Assembly: GCF_056746865.1 (NCBI RefSeq)
Contig: NZ_CM163382.1
Length of the DNA: 64,000 nucleotides
Strand: one strand, 5' to 3'
Numbering within the stretch: the first letter of the stretch is position 1; every line of letters starts with the position of its first letter. Of this stretch, positions 812 through 9,233 are shown piece after piece. The position numbers were made by a program, and so were the translations under genes. The notes under the pieces are model-generated. The model did not search any database. It was given only the letters and a program-made list of their open reading frames with translations, and had not been told where the DNA came from.

Positions 812-1822
812 TCAGGCGGAGGGAGCAAGCGTTGTCTTGCCAGGATGAAATTCCGGCTGCCAGAGTACTTGTAGCATTTCAGGTGAAACATTCGTGACCA
901 GCTGGCGTATCATGTCGTCAATCTGACGACCGACGCGATGTCGTGTTGACTGAAGAACTGCAGCCACATCCTGTTCAATAATACTGTCCTGCGGCAGACC
1001 ATCATAAACCACAAGAGAGACGGCATCCTCTCCGGACAGATGACCGGATAACTGCAGCGACATGGCCGCGCCATCACCGATCAGGTCACTGTCGGTAATA
1101 ATGGCCGTCGGGGGAAGCGGAAGTGACATTAACTCAGTCACTGCCTGGAAACCTGAGCGTCGGGTGGGAGAGACCCGGCGTAGCCAGGTCTCAGGCAGAC
1201 CATGTTCACTCAGGGCATCGCGCCATCCCTGACGTCGTGCAGTGACATAGGCACGGGAGTTGTCCTCACTCAGCAGGGCAATTCGCTGATGGCCCAGGGC
1301 AATCAGGTGCTGTGTGGCCTGCCAGGTTCCTGCATGGTTATCAAAGTCAAACCAGGCACAGGGAAGACCGGACGGCACCTGACCGAGTGCCAGAAACGGA
1401 ATACCGGCCTCCTGCAGGTGTGTAAGACGCGGGTCATTATCCATCGTGTGCGCCACGATAAGGGCATCAACCCGGCGGCTTTCGACCAGACGCATATAGC
1501 TGTGGCTGTCAGCCCGTTCATCATCGGCTATCAGCAGTAAGTCAATATCATGGCGGGCCAGTTCCCGGCTGATACAACTGACCATATCCACAAACACACT
1601 ACTGCTGAACAGTACAGCATGTTCAGGGAAGACCAGGCCGACCGCATCGGTTTTACCGGTTTTGAGACGTCTTGCCAGGGTATTCGGGCGATAACCACGA
1701 CGCCGAGCTTCCGCTTCTACACGTGCACGGGTCGAAGCGGAAACGTCCGAAAATCCGCCAAGCGCCCGGCTGACTGTGGTGACAGAGATCCCGAGTTCGG
1801 CGGCGATAGCCTTGAGTGACAT
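812..1822 (-). CDS. LacI-family transcriptional repressor (RafR-like), 336 aa
   Basis: ORF 812..1822; N-terminal LacI-type HTH (LKAIAAELGISVTTVSRAL); AGGAG 7 nt upstream of the ATG. Confidence 0.75.
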   Translation of the reverse strand: MSLKAIAAELGISVTTVSRALGGFSDVSASTRARVEAEARRRGYRPNTLARRLKTGKTDAVGLVFPEHAVLFSSSVFVDMVSCISRELARHDIDLLLIADDERADSHSYMRLVESRRVDALIVAHTMDNDPRLTHLQEAGIPFLALGQVPSGLPCAWFDFDNHAGTWQATQHLIALGHQRIALLSEDNSRAYVTARRQGWRDALSEHGLPETWLRRVSPTRRSGFQAVTELMSLPLPPTAIITDSDLIGDGAAMSLQLSGHLSGEDAVSLVVYDGLPQDSIIEQDVAAVLQSTRHRVGRQIDDMIRQLVTNVSPEMLQVLWQPEFHPGKTTLAPSA

Positions 1823-2156: not shown

Positions 2157-3245
2157 TAGACTGGCCCCCTGAATCTCCAGACAATCAATATCACTTAAAT
2201 AAGTGATAGTCTTAATACTAGTTTCTAGACTAGTCATTGGAGAATAGATGATTGATGTCTTAGGGCCGGAGAAACGCAGACGGCGTACTACACAGGAAAA
2301 GATCGCTATTGTTCAGCAGAGCTTTGAACCGGGAATGACGGTCTCCCTTGTTGCCCGGGGATGGGGAGTAAGCTTAGTCAGCCGTTGTCTCCGGGTGTCG
2401 CGTGCGCAGTTGCACGTCATTCTCAGACGAACCGATGACTGGAAAGATGGTCGCCGCAGCCGTCACTCAGATGATACGGATGTGCTTCTCCGTATACACC
2501 ATGTTATCGGAGAGCTGCCCACGTATGGTTATCGTCGGGTATGGGCGCTGCTTCGCAGACAGGCCGAACTTGATGGTATGCCTGCTATCAATGCCAAACG
2601 TGTTTACCGGATCATGCGCCAGAATGCGCTGTTGCTTGAGCGAAAAACCGCTGTACCGCCATCGAAACGGGCACATACTGGCAAAGTGGCCGTGAAAGAA
2701 AGCAATCAACGATGGTGCTCTGACGGGTTCGAGTTCCGCTGTGATAACGGAGAAAAACTGGGGGTCACGTTCGCGCTGGACTGCTGTGACCGTGAGGCAC
2801 TGCACTGGGCGGTCACTACGGGCGGCTTCGACAGTGAAACAGTACAGGACGTCATGCTGGGAGCGGTGGAACGCCGCTTCGGCAGCGAGCTTCCGACATC
2901 TCCAGTGGAGTGGCTGACGGATAATGGTTCATGCTACCGGGCTAATGAAACACGCCAGTTCGCCCGGATGCTGGGACTTGAACCGAAGAACACGGCGGTG
3001 CGGAGTCCGGAGAGTAACGGCATAGCAGAGAGCTTCGTGAAAACGATAAAGCGTGATTACATCAGTATCATGCCCAAACCAGACGGGTTAACGGCAGCAA
3101 AGAACCTTGCAGAGGCGTTCGAGCATTATAACGAATGGCATCCGCATAGTGCACTGGGTTATCGCTCGCCACGGGAATATCTACGGCAGCGGGCCAGTAA
3201 TGGGTTAAGTGATAACAGGTGTCTGGAAATATAGGGGCAAATCCA
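2157..3245 (+). mobile_element. IS2 derivative with an internal deletion of about 242 bp (1089 bp here against about 1331 bp for intact IS2); no 5-bp target-site duplication
   Basis: Left end TAGACTGGCCCCCTGAATCTCCAGACAA at 2157 and right end GGGGCAAATCCA ending at 3245 match the IS2 termini as I recall them. Flanks gatata / atggcg are not a direct repeat. Confidence 0.85.
2248..3234 (+). CDS. IS2 transposase, in-frame fusion of the first ~37 codons of orfA (InsC) to orfB (InsD) created by the internal deletion; 328 aa
   Basis: ORF begins [37 protein letters not shown] (InsC N-terminus) and continues [20 protein letters not shown]... (InsD). The junction lies at a GCCCGG motif; the full identity of the short repeat on the two sides is from the remembered IS2 sequence. 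Confidence 0.8.
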
Positions 3246-3440
3246 ATGGCGCAGATACGCTTGCGGATCGATACCATTCAGACAGCAGGTCCGTTCACTA
3301 CCGTAATCGCTGCCGAAGAACACATTGATTGCCCCTCAATAATCCTGCCGTCAACGTCAAAATTGCTGGTCGGGCTCGACTTATTTAATTGTGTAAACAG
3401 GGCCTCTCAGCGAAAGGCCCTTATGCATCACCTGACGTCG

Positions 3441-4007
3441 TTAAAAGTCACTACACCCAAGATGACGTTCAATGGCACCATGCGATTCAATGTAAGCCTG
3501 GGCCGTCTGTTCCAGTACACCAGGCTCAGCGTTGTATGTGTTAGCTGCATCAAATACCAACGACAGCACTTCAGGATACACAACCAGATGTGTAATGGAG
3601 TTATCTTCACCCAATACTTTTCCCCACGCCTGCTCAATCAGATTTCTGAGAGCCACCACCTCACGACTCTTACACCAGACATCGTTATTAAGTAGCAGTA
3701 CCATAAGATAAGGAGTGGTATCGTTAGCCACAGCTTCCCTACTCCAGAGATAATATAAAGGGGCGGGCTCAACAGATTTATCTTTACGTCGCTTGCACTG
3801 CAAATATTCAGAAATTAGTCTATGCAGTTCACCAGTAAAATCAGCCATCAGAGAGGGAATTGCCTTGTTCATACCTGGGCAAGGTATTAATTTAAATTGT
3901 AATAATTTAATTTTAGGATGTGTAGCTGCAGCCCGATACAGAGTTGCAAGGACATACTTTTGCCAGAGGGCGTTACAGGAAAGCTTAACGTTTGATTCTG
4001 TATACAT
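3441..4007 (-). CDS. hypothetical protein, 188 aa, co-transcribed with the upstream Gp2-like gene (27-bp gap)
   Basis: ORF 3441..4007; AAGGTG 8 nt upstream of the ATG; no recognisable motif. Confidence 0.5.
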   Translation of the reverse strand: MYTESNVKLSCNALWQKYVLATLYRAAATHPKIKLLQFKLIPCPGMNKAIPSLMADFTGELHRLISEYLQCKRRKDKSVEPAPLYYLWSREAVANDTTPYLMVLLLNNDVWCKSREVVALRNLIEQAWGKVLGEDNSITHLVVYPEVLSLVFDAANTYNAEPGVLEQTAQAYIESHGAIERHLGCSDF

Positions 4008-4034
4008 AATAAATCACCTTACAGTTACAATAGG

Positions 4035-4649
4035 TCAAAAACCGCTGTAGCCAAAGTTACGCTGGCCTGATGCTTTAGTGTCGAGCTTCGTCAGATAATC
4101 CAGACGTGCCAATAAGCGCTGATATTGCTCAGGGAAATCAGGATCGTTAATATCCAGGATGTAACGTCCATTAGCAGGGAAATGAACTAGTCCCTGGTGA
4201 TCTTCCAGTTCTAACCCTAAGGCACTGTACCAGGCTCCGGTAATTAACCCTCTCAGGGTGTCAGAGCGCTCATAGTCTCCCAGGTGGTAATAGGCGTCTT
4301 TGTTAAAAAAAAGGCAGACGTGATAATGACATTTAAAGGACTGCGTATATTCTTTCGCCCAGATAATACAAACCGACGTTGCGTAGGTGCGTTTGCCTTG
4401 TTGTTTTTTACGGTGTTGATCTGCATTAATTTTCGCATTCAGCGAGTTACGGAAACGAGATATCTCTCCGGGACTCAGGTTAGGAAAACAGGTAATGGTA
4501 TCCCCGTTGTCAATCACGGGAGGATAATGGAGATCCACCCGTATTGCCGTTATTCTGGGATGTTTCTGGAAGAGGTTATTCACCTGGTTTCTTATTTTTA
4601 ACCCGTGAGCCTCATGACATTCACCGTAAAGAGTTTCAATCGTAATCAT
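4035..4649 (-). CDS. YagK/YfjJ-type (inovirus Gp2-like) protein with an HUH-type motif, 204 aa
   Basis: ORF 4035..4649; motif KCHYHVCLFF (H-hydrophobic-H) followed by tyrosines (YYHLGDY); AAGGA upstream. Family call is from memory of similar proteins in P4-like cryptic elements. Confidence 0.55.
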   Translation of the reverse strand: MITIETLYGECHEAHGLKIRNQVNNLFQKHPRITAIRVDLHYPPVIDNGDTITCFPNLSPGEISRFRNSLNAKINADQHRKKQQGKRTYATSVCIIWAKEYTQSFKCHYHVCLFFNKDAYYHLGDYERSDTLRGLITGAWYSALGLELEDHQGLVHFPANGRYILDINDPDFPEQYQRLLARLDYLTKLDTKASGQRNFGYSGF

Positions 4650-5030
4650 GTTAATATTCCTTTTGCTTTCAGAGATAAGCTAATAGTTAACCTACCCAAT
4701 ACACAACAGAAGCAGATATTAATATTCGTATCAGTAGTTCCCAGAGGGATATATAACCCTCTGGGCGTCAATTAAGAAAAACGCTACTGCCTATTGTTAC
4801 ATTAGAGAACAGGATGATGTTACACAGTTACATTAGAACGTTCTAAAACATTAAACAGAGTTATGATCTACACACAACTAATTATTTGGTATCAGAATAC
4901 CATTAGCTCTATTAGTACATCATATCCATCATTACACATATACTATACATCACAGATATAATATATATTACCTATCCAACGCACATGTATTTATAACTCC
5001 ATTGCCAATAGCTACAAGGACTATAAAATG

Positions 5031-5591
5031 TTACTCTGCAGTTAGATCAACAATACCTTTATCCCAGTGTCTTTTTACAGTGGATAAACTGATGCTTAAT
5101 TTTCTGGCTGTTTGTGACTGACTGAACCCCTGCAATTTCAACTGTCTGATATTTTTACTATGAATACTCCCTTCTTTCCTTCCTGGTTTTCTTTTAATTT
5201 TCCGGATACTGATGTCGGGAATTTTTCCTCTAATATCTGTAGGTAAAATCATCCCGGTGAGTACCACAGGAATATCATCACCATCCGGCAACTCTGATGA
5301 CGTAAAAAAGCAAATATTAATACCTTGTCTGATACTTAAAGATAAAACCTCCTGTATTTTTTCCGGCGTATTACCAAAACAAGTTAACGATTTAGTAATC
5401 AGAATATCACCCCTTTGCATATCCTGCGTCAGGAGTCGAACTAACCGTTTTCTGTCTGCCAGAGTATAATCCGGGCGACCCAATTCGCCTGTTAACTGCA
5501 ATAGTGGTTCTTTAAAATATCTCTGAATCATGGATTTTAAGCGATTAAGTTTTGACCATTTTTCAGAGTCTATGTATGCAAAACTCGCCAT
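5031..5591 (-). CDS. serine-recombinase (resolvase)-like DNA-binding protein, probably catalytically inactive, 186 aa
   Basis: ORF 5031..5591. GDILITKSLTCFGNT aligns by eye to the resolvase GDxLVVxxLDRLGRS motif but lacks the two Arg; N-terminus FAYIDSEK instead of YxRVSTxxQ; C-terminal HTH (TARKLSISLSTVKRHW). Confidence 0.5.
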   Translation of the reverse strand: MASFAYIDSEKWSKLNRLKSMIQRYFKEPLLQLTGELGRPDYTLADRKRLVRLLTQDMQRGDILITKSLTCFGNTPEKIQEVLSLSIRQGINICFFTSSELPDGDDIPVVLTGMILPTDIRGKIPDISIRKIKRKPGRKEGSIHSKNIRQLKLQGFSQSQTARKLSISLSTVKRHWDKGIVDLTAE

Positions 5592-5812
5592 AATGCCTCA
5601 AACTGGTGTCATGAATTAATTATTGAACCTGTTTTTTCCTGAGTCGCATTACTCTTTTCTAAGGGAGGCTCTCCAGATACATCGGAAAAGTACTCGATAA
5701 AAGAGTTGGCCACTCCCGGGTAATGATTGCTCTCTTTAACCTCAGAAAGCGGTTTCTGTTCATCATTTACACCACGATTTCTGGGTTATGAATAAATCTA
5801 CGCGGGCCATAA

Positions 5813-6559
5813 TCATTCATCTTCAAATGGGTTAATAATAATAACATCTCCACCTGTTCTGGAACTTTGTGAAACTTCCTCTGTTCTCAGAACAGGCACT
5901 ATTACAGCCTTATTATTGATATAAAAAATCGGAATATGAAAAGTACAAAATCCTGTACTACGAATCTGATGTCGCCTCACTGTTTCTTTCGTACCATACT
6001 CAATCAACTCATCTATCGGCAGGCAAACTGAATTGCAAAAGTCAAAAAAATAATCCCCAAAAACACTGGTTTTAATCAGAATGGTTTTATAAAACCCTCC
6101 TGCACGATTCAGGGTATGGGAAACTTTTCTGTTCGTGTAAATACAAATTGCCTTCTCAACTTTATAATATTCCAGCATTAAGGTCGCATTCTCTTTAATT
6201 CCCTTTTTCTCTGCAACTCCCATAGCATTTCTGGTGCTTTCATGAGGAAATATCTTTCTATCGAGAACATCATATTCATATTTGATATGCGATTTATAAA
6301 TGCTATGAAAAAACTCTCCTTTTGTTATTTCAGGCTTTGTCCGTTGCACAAATGGTTCCTCATTAAAAAACTGACGTAGCTTATCCTCTATATCAGTTAT
6401 AGCAGCAATATTTTCATTTATCCTGTTTAAAACAGGAGCCCCTAGCTTTAAACACTCTTTAATCGCTGCTGAAAATGAGCATTTTTTTAAATGCTGATAC
6501 TTTTTAATTACATCAGCTTCATATGTTTCTGCAAGAGAGAAAGAGACACGTTTCATCAT
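5813..6559 (-). CDS. hypothetical protein, 248 aa; N-terminal ~45 aa resemble a ribbon-helix-helix DNA-binding fold, C-terminal ~200 aa unassigned
   Basis: ORF 5813..6559; strong RBS AAGGAG 5 nt before ATGATG; AT-rich coding sequence; N-terminus KRVSFSLAETYEADVIKKYQ...FSAAIKECLKLG has a strand-helix-helix pattern. Confidence 0.55.
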   Translation of the reverse strand: MMKRVSFSLAETYEADVIKKYQHLKKCSFSAAIKECLKLGAPVLNRINENIAAITDIEDKLRQFFNEEPFVQRTKPEITKGEFFHSIYKSHIKYEYDVLDRKIFPHESTRNAMGVAEKKGIKENATLMLEYYKVEKAICIYTNRKVSHTLNRAGGFYKTILIKTSVFGDYFFDFCNSVCLPIDELIEYGTKETVRRHQIRSTGFCTFHIPIFYINNKAVIVPVLRTEEVSQSSRTGGDVIIINPFEDE

Positions 6560-6621
6560 GAAACTCCTTTTTAATTATAAAATTAAAATATAGAAATATA
6601 TATTATTCTGATACTATAAGG

Positions 6622-6849
6622 TTAATACTGACTAATCCACCACAATAGATCACTTAATAACCACCCACAGGATTTCTTTCCAATAGTTTTACGTGGCGGG
6701 AATTTTCCTTCACGTTCCAGTTTCCAGGCTTGTGAACGAGAAATAGACGTAATTTTCTGGCGTTCCTTTTCTCGTACCAGTCTGTCACAGGTGTATCCAT
6801 AGATCTTCAAAATTGATAAACGGTTCTCATCTCTTAACGGCTTCCACAT
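6622..6849 (-). CDS. AlpA-family prophage transcriptional regulator / excisionase-like protein, 75 aa
   Basis: ORF 6622..6849; SRSQAWKLEREGKFPPRKTIGKKSCGWLLSDLLWW resembles the AlpA HTH core; AGGAGA RBS. Confidence 0.65.
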   Translation of the reverse strand: MWKPLRDENRLSILKIYGYTCDRLVREKERQKITSISRSQAWKLEREGKFPPRKTIGKKSCGWLLSDLLWWISQY

Positions 6850-7628
6850 ATTGCTCTCCTTATATATTCATGATTTTCAGATTGTATATGCATGTGAGCT
6901 GCTCAAATCACTACATCTATCTGTAGTGGTATGCTGTTGAACAGCACCAGCAACTCACGAGCAAAACAATACATTTGCACAACCAAGAAATCAAATTGCG
7001 AGAAATGATTTAATTAACTGACTTCTAATAACACAATAACAACAAAGAAAGTCACAATATAAAAATAACTTAAACAATGCTTTTTGGTATACAAAATAAA
7101 AATCAAAATCACAATATTCGTAGGTTATTTTATGCAGACAAAAACAAAAAAAATCTTGTTATAATCTATGATATCAAGAGGAGGGGTAGTGACCAAAAAT
7201 TCTCCCCAGAAAAGCCCCCACAACATTAGTTTGAAAACGTGACGAAGTTCACAAAATTATCTTCTGGCGATAATAGAACTTGTAAGAGGGAGTTGATTTT
7301 TGCCAACTTTCTAAAGCTAAAGTGCAGACAAAAGATAATAATTGAATGAAAACGATACATATTTTCAGATGAAAGTGACGTGACTGTAGAGGGCTATAAC
7401 CGTAAAATCATTTGCGTCCTGAGCAATATGCAACAAAAGGGAATGCTCGTAAAAAAATCAGGAATAAACGCTAAGGATATCGTATTAGATTCAGCATCGT
7501 ATAATGCCACTGCATAACTGATTCCCATTTCGTAGAGGCTGTTAACTCTGTATCAATGTCCTGACAAAGGACTGTATCAAGTTTCTCTACTGGAAACAGC
7601 TATGCAATAGACGGAAGAATTTAACATT

Positions 7629-9233
7629 ATGGTAACTAAAAAGGTAAAAACAAACCACCCGTACTATCGTGTTTTATCCGGCACCTCCATGCCGTTTCCC
7701 CACATACATGAAGCTGTTTCCGAACAGTTGCTTCTACTCATTTTCAAAGCACGCAGATTGTATCTGGATCCAGAATATCGTCCTTGGTTTGATGAACAAC
7801 ATCGGATTCTCTCGGCATTACGCGCTAACACAAAACTCCAAAGTATTTTAGAGAAAAACAGAGAGAACTACTCCATAAGTGAGACCGATAATCCACTATC
7901 TAAAGATCTGTATGCTGCTTTTCAGGTTATGTGCCATTTATACAATGGTTTTGATAACAGACTCGTCAGCCTGAAAACCTGGGGAGATATGAACAGGGAA
8001 CCAACAGCAAAATTTGTCGGCCAAAATAGTGGTGGCTGGAAAACACCTGAGATGGAAGAATTCGTCAGAAACGATTTGTTCAATATTCTGACAGATTGTA
8101 AAGCTCATTGCTCACCACTTCCCGCTCTGGTTCGACAAGGATATTGCCATCAGGATCTTTCTGTTGCGCACTCATGTACTAAAGAATTACTGGAACAACT
8201 GAACCGATACCATCAAATTGATGAATCAGCGATACTTGCCAGAACCCTTGGTTTGGCTATTAACAACTGCTATCACTCAGAAACAGAGATTCCTGAATGG
8301 CTTTCTCCTTTTGAAAATGAATACAAAAGTCCCTGGAATTGTGAGAAACCAGATACTAACGATGTGAGTAAACTTAGAAAACAATTGCTAACAATCGGGC
8401 GTACAGAATTCGTGGACAAAATGTTTTCGCTAGCCAACAAAAATGCAACAAAGATAATATATGATGGATACGTTAAACTTTATGCTCTGGAAATATATGA
8501 ATGGTTAAATAAATTAGTGCAATATTTTAAAGGAAATGATTTTATTCGTTACACCTGGAAGTTCACAACAATTATTTCCGATGAAAGTGACACGATTGAA
8601 AACACCACCGCATGGGAAAAAGACTATTGTCAAATCACTATACAGCGTGATGAACTTCTGAAACTGATTTATACCAATACCCTGCAGGATGCAGCAATGA
8701 ATCTTGCTGATTGCCTGCAACAGGCATACACAGAACCGTTAAAAATGGAAATAAATTATCCAGGAATAAACATTGATGCAAAAGAGCGTAAAATTAGAAA
8801 ATCTATTGAATTCAGGAGCGAACTGAATAACTTCACAAACATCATGAAACAACTGGAAATATTTGAAAAATGGTATAACGCCAATAAAATTCTGTTGGTA
8901 AGTAACAAAAAGATACGTACAGAAAAGATTGACGTGAATATTCGTCTTGCAGGACTAAAAGGCTATGATCTGAATGAAGGTATACCTGATGGTCAGGGAC
9001 GCAGAATTAAAGATGGTGTAAATGAACTTGTCAAGGCAGATGGCAGTCTACAACTTCCACAAGATATCAGTGACACTTCGCTTAACCGTTACCGTCAAGC
9101 AGTTCAACACATTATTAAGGATGAGATCGACACGTTGCTGATAGCACAGAGGGAAAAAAATAAAATAAATCCATATAGCGAAGATAGATACTCGATACGA
9201 CCTTTATGGGGAAAATGTCTGGTCGAACAGTAA
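7629..9233 (+). CDS. hypothetical protein, 534 aa, no domain recognisable by eye; integrase-proximal cargo
   Basis: ORF 7629..9233; GGAAG upstream of the ATG; AT-rich; preceded by a 780-bp AT-rich non-coding region. Confidence 0.6.
   Translation: MVTKKVKTNHPYYRVLSGTSMPFPHIHEAVSEQLLLLIFKARRLYLDPEYRPWFDEQHRILSALRANTKLQSILEKNRENYSISETDNPLSKDLYAAFQVMCHLYNGFDNRLVSLKTWGDMNREPTAKFVGQNSGGWKTPEMEEFVRNDLFNILTDCKAHCSPLPALVRQGYCHQDLSVAHSCTKELLEQLNRYHQIDESAILARTLGLAINNCYHSETEIPEWLSPFENEYKSPWNCEKPDTNDVSKLRKQLLTIGRTEFVDKMFSLANKNATKIIYDGYVKLYALEIYEWLNKLVQYFKGNDFIRYTWKFTTIISDESDTIENTTAWEKDYCQITIQRDELLKLIYTNTLQDAAMNLADCLQQAYTEPLKMEINYPGINIDAKERKIRKSIEFRSELNNFTNIMKQLEIFEKWYNANKILLVSNKKIRTEKIDVNIRLAGLKGYDLNEGIPDGQGRRIKDGVNELVKADGSLQLPQDISDTSLNRYRQAVQHIIKDEIDTLLIAQREKNKINPYSEDRYSIRPLWGKCLVEQ

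Follow-up and report, generated by a model that had tools for sequence, protein, structure and literature searches.

A predicted Rep-class HUH nuclease of the YagK/YfjJ family and its catalytically degenerate paralogue in a CP4-6-type island of Escherichia coli

An island inserted beside nfeF (yqjH) in Escherichia coli carries two adjacent genes of the YagK/YfjJ family, and the question raised by this locus is what such a pair contributes to the element that carries it. The genes lie on the minus strand of contig NZ_CM163382.1 (RefSeq assembly GCF_056746865.1), in a 64,000-nt stretch that was analysed as a whole and is referred to here as the window. A 204-aa protein (w204) is encoded at 4035–4649 and a 188-aa protein (w188) at 3441–4007. 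The 27-bp spacer between them (4008–4034) contains the ribosome-binding site AAGGTGA at 4014–4020, as read from the sequence, 6 nt before the w188 start codon, and the terminator scan reported no terminator-like site in this gap on either strand. The reading frames, the 27-bp gap and a separate ribosome-binding site for w188 had been proposed in a first-pass annotation made from the letters alone, and all are borne out by the sequence and by RefSeq, in which identical DNA from other E. coli genomes carries the same boundaries for both genes under the names "inovirus Gp2 family protein" (w204) and "YagK/YfjJ domain-containing protein" (w188). The region from 3300 to 7000 is 100% identical to many complete E. 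coli genomes; the pair is an already annotated and common one in this species. The explanation favoured here, to which we give slightly better than even chances, is that w204 and w188 form one transcription unit in an island backbone of the type found in the K-12 element CP4-6, with w204 nicking the excised island and w188 modulating its action.

The assignment of the YagK/YfjJ family to the Rep class of HUH (histidine-hydrophobic-histidine) nucleases is supported by its sequence and predicted fold, and w204 is predicted to be a single-tyrosine endonuclease of this class. The first-pass annotation had proposed a hidden Markov model search against the inovirus Gp2 family, and w204 indeed matches PF11726 (YagK_YfjJ_C, formerly DUF3296 / Inovirus_Gp2) with 186.8 bits and an expectation value (E) of 4e-55, the gathering threshold being 25.8 bits. 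A full HMMER scan of 1.84 billion representative proteins returned 599 relatives at E up to 0.001, and in this search the family amounts to about 600 clusters at 50% identity. An alignment was built from the best-scoring 150 proteins of the unbiased HMMER search; it holds 128 relatives that are 30–56% identical to w204 and may under-sample degenerate family members. Six residues, E100, H108, H110, W140, Y185 and K188, are invariant in all 128, and R37, D39 and N116 are nearly so. The motif CHYHVC (residues 107–112) had been put forward as an HUH motif; since H108 and H110 are invariant among the 128 relatives it is not a chance match, and the predicted fold and profile links described below agree with it. 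The tyrosines that directly follow this motif (Y120 and Y121), to which attention had also been drawn, are not the conserved ones; invariance is found at Y185, which is part of a YxxK motif. The presence of an invariant catalytic set argues that the active members of the family would cut DNA.

Proteins of 363–423 aa at five loci elsewhere (L013, L043, L074, L086 and L095) begin with ~200 aa that have no assignment; the YagK/YfjJ domain, with its HUH motif, follows in the C-terminal half, and these proteins may be a fused variant of the family. Loci elsewhere were gathered with the degenerate DNA pattern W-x2-E-x7-H[YF]H-x2-hhh-N, and the resulting set is biased to intact motifs and uninformative on motif conservation.

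The AlphaFold model of w204 has a predicted local distance difference test score (pLDDT) of 94 and a predicted template modelling score (pTM) of 0.89, and displays the central antiparallel sheet with flanking helices that is typical of the HUH nuclease fold. In the model, E100 and the HUH motif occupy adjacent strands (94–101 and 107–116) and Y185 lies on the helix formed by residues 172–187. The best structural matches of the model are HUH nuclease domains of parvoviral, archaeal-viral and plasmid proteins, with scores of 7.7 for MVM NS1, 7.5 for SIRV1 ORF119, 6.9 for B19 NS1, 6.8 for the Rep protein of adeno-associated virus (AAV) type 5, 6.7 for Helraiser, 6.2 for pMV158 RepB, 5.9 for a nanovirus Rep and 5.8 for a REP-associated transposase. 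Searches by sequence against solved structures, with the single protein or with a profile, returned nothing meaningful. Profile comparison linked the family to a microvirus replication initiator (hhalign probability 93%, E 3.4e-7), with the glutamate and HYH motif in register. The same initiator matches PF23343 (Rep ORF2/G2P) and, more weakly and below threshold, PF11726 and Phage_GPA (P2 gpA). The match of w204 itself to PF23343 falls just below threshold, many of its relatives carry recorded PF23343 matches, and w204 also matches phrog_2969, "replication initiation protein", at E 7e-5.

The order of motifs in w204, an acidic residue followed by HUH (108–110) and YxxK (Y185–K188), is the Rep-class arrangement. 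The first-pass annotation had likened the HUH motif to those of rolling-circle initiators and relaxases alike; the former likeness stands, whereas classical MOB relaxases have the tyrosine before an HUH motif with three histidines, an arrangement that w204 does not have. This order tells against the idea that w204 is a mobilisation relaxase, which would nick an adjacent origin of transfer and guide the strand through the secretion apparatus of a conjugative plasmid in the same cell; the island would then be an integrative mobilisable element. The catalytic evidence serves that idea as well as it serves a Rep, a conserved DNA element (described below) immediately precedes the gene, the usual place of a transfer origin with respect to a relaxase gene, and 41 of the 67 plasmid records that carry the family are conjugative plasmids. 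Rep-like proteins are known to act as relaxases in other integrative elements. However, no coupling protein or mating genes are found beside w204 in the window or among the recurrent neighbours of the family, and the sole experimentally studied island class with such a core moves by phage transduction. A relaxase role is therefore considered unlikely.

The second protein of the pair had been described as an unknown partner. This does not hold, as w188 passes the gathering threshold of PF11726 (39.6 bits against the cutoff of 25.8; E 6.6e-10), scores 49.8 bits against the family profile, and is already named for its YagK/YfjJ domain in RefSeq. At the position of the HUH motif, HYH is replaced by PYL (P99-Y-L101), which leaves no His-hydrophobic-His sequence. 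Q and K stand in place of R37 and D39. Gln is aligned with Y185, and either Gln or Ile with K188, according to the alignment used; a tyrosine lies two to five residues away. The HUH-family fold is predicted to be retained. By its sequence, w188 is a divergent, catalytically degenerate paralogue of the YagK/YfjJ family, predicted to be unable to cut DNA. Its closest active relative is a 189-aa family member of other E. coli islands, to which it is 30% identical over the full length, and it is only 23% identical to its neighbour w204. Three alleles of w188, about 5% apart, gave ratios of non-synonymous to synonymous substitution rates (dN/dS) of 0.16–0.24, from small counts of about 13 synonymous and 7–12 non-synonymous changes per allele pair. 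These ratios are well below 1, so w188 is maintained as a protein by purifying selection.

Loss of the catalytic residues is not confined to w188. Among 118 family loci of other species, extra paralogues that have also lost the glutamate, the histidines and the tyrosine were found at L010, L015 and L081 (Vibrio bivalvicida, Vogesella aquatica and Vibrio albus). A single ancient subfamily of dead paralogues was ruled out: each dead copy is nearest to active members and not to other dead copies, and the pairing of an active with a dead member therefore arose several times. The V. bivalvicida locus (L010:2089-4163) contains three family genes in tandem, of which the first has the full catalytic set and the second and third exhibit a progressive loss (E to A or R, H to Q or N, Y to R or S).

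The region upstream of w204 contains a conserved element. The spacers that precede w204, K-12 yagK and K-12 yfjJ have in common the sequence TTG(G)ATAGGTAATATATA, and a 20-nt element, TCGGTATnGGTAnTAT, was found upstream of family genes across the Gamma- and Betaproteobacteria. In the window this element is present as a single copy on the minus strand, 311 nt before the w204 start codon, within a 24-nt sequence conserved family-wide, TGCGTTGGATAGGTAATATATATT (4960–4983; consensus nTkTCGGTATnGGTAnTAT), which is a candidate promoter and operator. A weight matrix refined on 99 upstream regions (consensus score 16.5 bits) found the element at 10 bits or more in 56 of the 99 on the coding strand, versus 2 on the reverse strand and 4 in shuffled sequences; the matrix was trained on the regions that it scored, and it is the reverse-strand, shuffled and whole-locus scans that carry the claim. 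On both strands of 1.2 Mb of loci there were 62 matches of at least 14 bits, 52 of which precede a same-strand family gene by no more than 420 nt; five of the remaining ten lie further upstream of such a gene, again on the same strand. The best-conserved positions are a −10-like hexamer, TAnTAT, and the GG before it, and the conserved TCGGTAT block is located about 16–22 nt upstream of the start site. No conserved −35 hexamer was found upstream of the element. In the K-12 yagL–yagK spacer, genomic systematic evolution of ligands by exponential enrichment (SELEX) has indicated an RpoD (sigma-70) promoter, TTTAGA-16-TATAAT, together with H-NS binding (PMC3946193). This listed promoter overlaps the conserved element, which is therefore at least a promoter.

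The TCGGTAT block goes beyond what sigma-70 needs and looks like a site for a protein common to these islands, the candidates being the YagK/YfjJ-family protein itself and AlpA. The association of the element with a nearby AlpA gene gave a Fisher p of 0.13, and of 16 loci that lack an AlpA gene nearby, 7 still have the element. The Pseudomonas aeruginosa protein named AlpA is an eight-helix, Q-like antiterminator with its DNA-contact residues at 128–142, and its binding element at PalpB is GGGACG-N5-GGTA, between −35 and −10 (PMC7969949, PMC9371919). A CG-N5-GGTA sequence just upstream of the −10 is thus shared with the island element; the GGGA part is not conserved there, and the P. aeruginosa protein is much longer than the 75-aa PF05930 AlpA protein encoded in the window and is taken to be a different type of protein. 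This resemblance may be due to chance and is offered as a lead only.

The promoter anatomy of the element bears on another alternative, in which both proteins are DNA-binding regulators that bind the element and repress or tune the island promoter, any nuclease chemistry being vestigial. Besides the sigma-70 features, the binding of RNA polymerase holoenzyme and H-NS reported in the K-12 spacer is in keeping with such a role, as is w188, which lacks catalytic residues yet is under selection. Among HUH Reps, those of geminiviruses and AAV are autorepressors, each acting on its own promoter. The glutamate, both histidines, the tyrosine and the lysine are nevertheless invariant across the 128 relatives, despite their low identity to w204, which is hard to explain without catalysis, and regulation as the main function of the pair is regarded as quite improbable. 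Under the favoured reading, in which w204 nicks DNA, the element is possibly also a Rep binding or nick site.

A perfect 9-bp, G+C-rich inverted repeat, CCCAGAGGG-(8 nt, A+T only)-CCCTCTGGG, is located at 4740–4765, 91–116 nt upstream of the w204 start codon, and may be a hairpin in the leader RNA, an operator or the hairpin of a nick site. Its reading as a conserved nick-site hairpin is not supported: the 16 upstream regions inspected showed no hairpin conserved in sequence or position, and the one ahead of K-12 yagK (−43 to −23) is different. At some Pseudomonas-type loci (L113, L072 and L107), the 45 nt before the element contain a long, perfect, G+C-rich hairpin that ends a few bases ahead of it, for example CCCCACTCCC-ttgc-GGGAGTGGGG, which may terminate transcription of the upstream gene or belong to an origin.

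The surroundings of the pair correspond to the backbone of CP4-6. By BLASTP, the 248-aa protein encoded at 5813–6559 is 31% identical to K-12 YagM over 248 aa, the 186-aa protein encoded at 5031–5591 is 36% identical to YagL, and w204 is 59% identical to YagK (and 39% to YfjJ of CP4-57), in the same order and on the same strand as in K-12. In the direction of transcription the series runs AlpA, YagM-like, YagL-like, YagK-like (w204) and dead YagK-like (w188), with the integrase further upstream; apart from the two unrelated genes that separate integrase and AlpA in the window, the integrase, AlpA-like, YagM, YagL and YagK genes are co-linear as in a CP4-6-type backbone. The resemblance to CP4-6 suggested by the first-pass annotation was thus recovered for YagM, YagL, YagK, the AlpA-family gene and the tyrosine integrase, and failed for YagJ: this protein was ruled out as the counterpart of w188, being dissimilar in sequence and encoded on the opposite strand in K-12. 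Neither CP4-6 nor CP4-57 of K-12 contains a counterpart of w188. In locus neighbourhoods elsewhere, an AlpA-like gene is present within 2.6 kb of the family gene in 35 of 51 loci and is often adjacent, and DUF3987 (YfjI-type) and HTH_36 proteins are recurrent upstream of family genes. Pseudomonas islands with a core that includes int, alpA and a "Gp2-like" gene have been found to be moved by a jumbo phage (bioRxiv 10.1101/2024.08.29.610337).

This backbone position also bears on a role in interference or defence, in which a Rep-like nuclease would nick or titrate the origins of incoming single-stranded DNA phages or rolling-circle plasmids and the dead copy would act as a decoy binder. Homology to microvirus and inovirus-type initiators is compatible with such a role, and family genes are often found in defence-rich islands, e.g., yfjJ next to abpAB in CP4-57, and Pseudomonas islands. 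Against it, the pair has no PADLOC match, the gene sits in the conserved backbone next to AlpA and not in variable cargo, and the family gene has its own conserved cis element; this role is judged very improbable.

Within E. coli, most of the w204/w188 pair is present in 322 of 5,426 complete genomes, and in 164 of the complete genomes searched the DNA of the pair is at least 99% identical. In about 1,000 further complete genomes, w188 is accompanied by what is left of the active gene, a short fragment next to insertion sequence (IS) elements; this remnant is 66 aa long in both examples examined. In these two examples, from pathogenicity-type islands (L004:9595-9792 and L005:9589-9786), the DNA match to the window ends at the same point (query position 747) although the flanks differ (IS66-family and IS600), which suggests an old deletion or recombination junction. 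The truncated genes would fit a decaying remnant, i.e., a cryptic island whose pair is functionless in the present strain, as would the IS3-family element that abuts the 3' side of the pair (2248–3234) and the location of the K-12 relatives in cryptic prophages. Both reading frames are intact in the window, however, as are the integrase, AlpA and the upstream element, and the identity of the pair among the 164 genomes and the low dN/dS of w188 are likewise at odds with decay. A functionless pair is thus a decidedly unlikely explanation.

In the favoured reading, w204 and w188 would be co-transcribed as one unit, probably expressed from the element at 4960–4983. In the protein, E100, H108 and H110 are expected to hold a divalent metal, while Y185, on the neighbouring helix in YxxK, would cut one DNA strand and stay bound to its 5' end. 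The most likely job of w204 would be site-specific nicking of the island in its excised, circular form, and the nick would start rolling-circle copying or yield a single strand that a helper phage or plasmid could transfer. Action on the excised island fits because of the backbone position of the gene by AlpA, its YfjI-type and HTH_36 neighbours, and the Pseudomonas islands moved by jumbo phage, and we infer a role for w204 in the replication or mobilisation of the island. The w188 protein probably binds the same DNA or w204 itself, modulating nicking or expression. A broader proposal, which is tentative and rather doubtful, is that YagK/YfjJ proteins are the initiators of replication or mobilisation hitherto missing for a very large class of AlpA-type integrative islands and phage satellites in the Gamma- and Betaproteobacteria, with an origin in their own promoter at the 20-nt element and with dead paralogues that repeatedly evolved as origin-binding regulators or partners. 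Under that proposal, melting of the promoter by RNA polymerase, or the binding of the family protein to the GGTA repeats, would expose the strand for nicking.

Several observations weigh against the action of w204 as an island nickase. The searchable literature contains no functional study of the YagK/YfjJ family, and K-12 yagK and yfjJ are still listed as uncharacterised (PMC11551758). No helicase is fused to w204 or encoded next to it, unlike in viral Reps. The first-pass annotation had suggested looking for a nick site or iterons between 4650 and 5030; this part of the window yielded the conserved promoter-like element with its GGTA repeats and the non-conserved hairpin, and no nick site was identified in it. 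A promoter function would suffice to account for the conserved element. The hairpins immediately before it are only weakly enriched (mean −7.8 versus −6.6 kcal/mol in shuffled sequences, p 0.009), an enrichment that is confounded by G+C content. Nor is the pair obligatory, the active gene being cut to a remnant in about 1,000 E. coli genomes. Sequenced phages almost never carry the family: a tblastn search of 50,697 phage records gave two weak or doubtful matches, one to an unverified low-coverage contig and one to a microvirus Rep at E 1e-3, and none in an inovirus genome. The contig, "Escherichia phage ECO111 5-P", was ruled out as a small phage carrying the gene, being an unverified assembly at 3.7x coverage. 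Among 72,556 plasmid records the family is present in 67, mostly large plasmids and not small rolling-circle ones, and it is therefore not seen as the sole initiator of an autonomous replicon. By these counts the family is atypical both of sequenced inoviruses and of small rolling-circle plasmids.

Several known systems resemble parts of this arrangement. The closest are K-12 YagK (CP4-6) and YfjJ (CP4-57), which belong to the same PF11726 family and have the upstream 20-nt element; CP4-6 also has the YagM, YagL, AlpA-like and integrase neighbours in common with the island in the window. The K-12 elements differ in that no second, degenerate copy follows yagK or yfjJ, and yagK is followed by the convergent, unrelated yagJ and then IS1. 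The Rep-class YxxK enzymes (PF23343 microvirus/inovirus ORF2/G2P, P2 gpA, parvovirus Rep/NS1, the Rep proteins of circular single-stranded DNA viruses, and pMV158 RepB) have the same order of acidic residue, HUH strand and tyrosine helix, the YxxK(xxxK) motif and a fold that is predicted for w204 as well. In contrast to these enzymes, w204, as known from its sequence and model, is only ~200 aa long, has no helicase or oligomerisation domain and resides in a chromosomal island; its single tyrosine contrasts with the two of the microvirus and P2 proteins. Phage Ff (gpII/gpX) and phiX174 (gpA/gpA*) encode an initiator together with a non-nicking derivative that regulates replication and is made from an internal start of the same gene. 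These pairs resemble w204 and w188 in combining an active initiator with a related non-nicking protein, the Ff pair being the nearest precedent for w188, which differs in being the product of a separate and diverged paralogous gene and would have a comparable regulatory role by inference. In geminiviruses the Rep iterons lie in the promoter of the rep gene itself, and the AAV p5 promoter contains a Rep-binding element. This overlap of origin and promoter is reminiscent of the short GGTA-repeat element over the −10 of the presumed initiator's own promoter; unlike in those viruses, binding of the YagK-family protein to the element is putative, and the element may be only a promoter with the site of another factor.

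YagK and YfjJ are among the K-12 genes without an assigned function, and the family to which they belong is a backbone part of many islands with an integrase and AlpA whose cargo includes virulence, metabolic and anti-phage genes; one Pseudomonas class of these islands behaves as a phage satellite. If the family members are indeed nickases that start copying or transfer, this would account for the persistence after excision, and the spread, of "cryptic" islands that lack recognisable genes for replication or conjugation. The leads open to testing are a set of four catalytic residues, a 20-nt DNA element of defined sequence and a naturally inactive paralogue. The pair in the window is itself ordinary, and the value of the analysis lies in its predictions for the family; as far as the searchable literature shows, the catalytic set, the recurrent dead paralogues and the promoter-embedded element are new.

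The remaining genes of the backbone series are also on the minus strand. The YagL-like gene (5031–5591) is located directly upstream of the conserved element, and its 186-aa product has a C-terminal resolvase-type helix-turn-helix (HTH), matching HTH_7 in Pfam above threshold (E 3.7e-5), and a degenerate resolvase-like N-terminus. As a serine recombinase it matched PF00239 (Resolvase) only at E 0.073, with 13.6 bits against a cutoff of 23.3, and it may represent a further case, within the same operon, of a degenerate enzyme that has become a DNA-binding protein. The 248-aa YagM-like protein has no match in Pfam, NCBIfam, PHROG or PADLOC. At the head of the same-strand series, the 75-aa AlpA-family protein (6622–6849) is a small HTH protein of the excisionase/regulator type, matching PF05930 (E 2.5e-14) and phrog_2790, "excisionase and transcriptional regulator" (E 3e-22). 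The tyrosine integrase (10042–11358, minus strand), which has Arm-DNA-bind_3 and Phage_integrase domains and is also supported by the RefSeq annotation of identical DNA, forms the end of the island that meets the 3' end of nfeF (yqjH) at 11359–11654. No tRNA or tmRNA gene was found anywhere in the 64-kb window, and the attachment site is for this reason not a tRNA gene. Rfam yielded no family at its gathering score anywhere in the window, and a relaxed search of 3200–7700 gave one chance-level match.

Between the AlpA gene and the integrase, a 534-aa open reading frame on the plus strand (7629–9233) has no match in Pfam, NCBIfam, PHROG or PADLOC, is annotated as "hypothetical" in RefSeq, and is probably island cargo. 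The 208-aa protein encoded next to the integrase (9316–9942, minus strand) matches phrog_7522, a group of unknown function, at E 2e-129 and displays a faint acetyltransferase-like signal. On the other side of the pair, a 7-bp G+C-rich hairpin on the minus strand, AGGGCCT ... AGGCCCT (3399–3421), lies 20 nt past the w188 stop codon; it has a poor T-run and was not called by the terminator scan, and with low confidence it is a possible weak terminator of the two-gene unit. The IS3-family transposase open reading frame beyond it is on the plus strand and is followed by the gene for a LacI-type regulator (812–1822, minus strand). In identical genomes this regulator is part of a sugar-utilisation cluster with an alpha-galactosidase, a major facilitator superfamily (MFS) transporter, a GH32 hydrolase and a porin, and the window therefore begins within island cargo.

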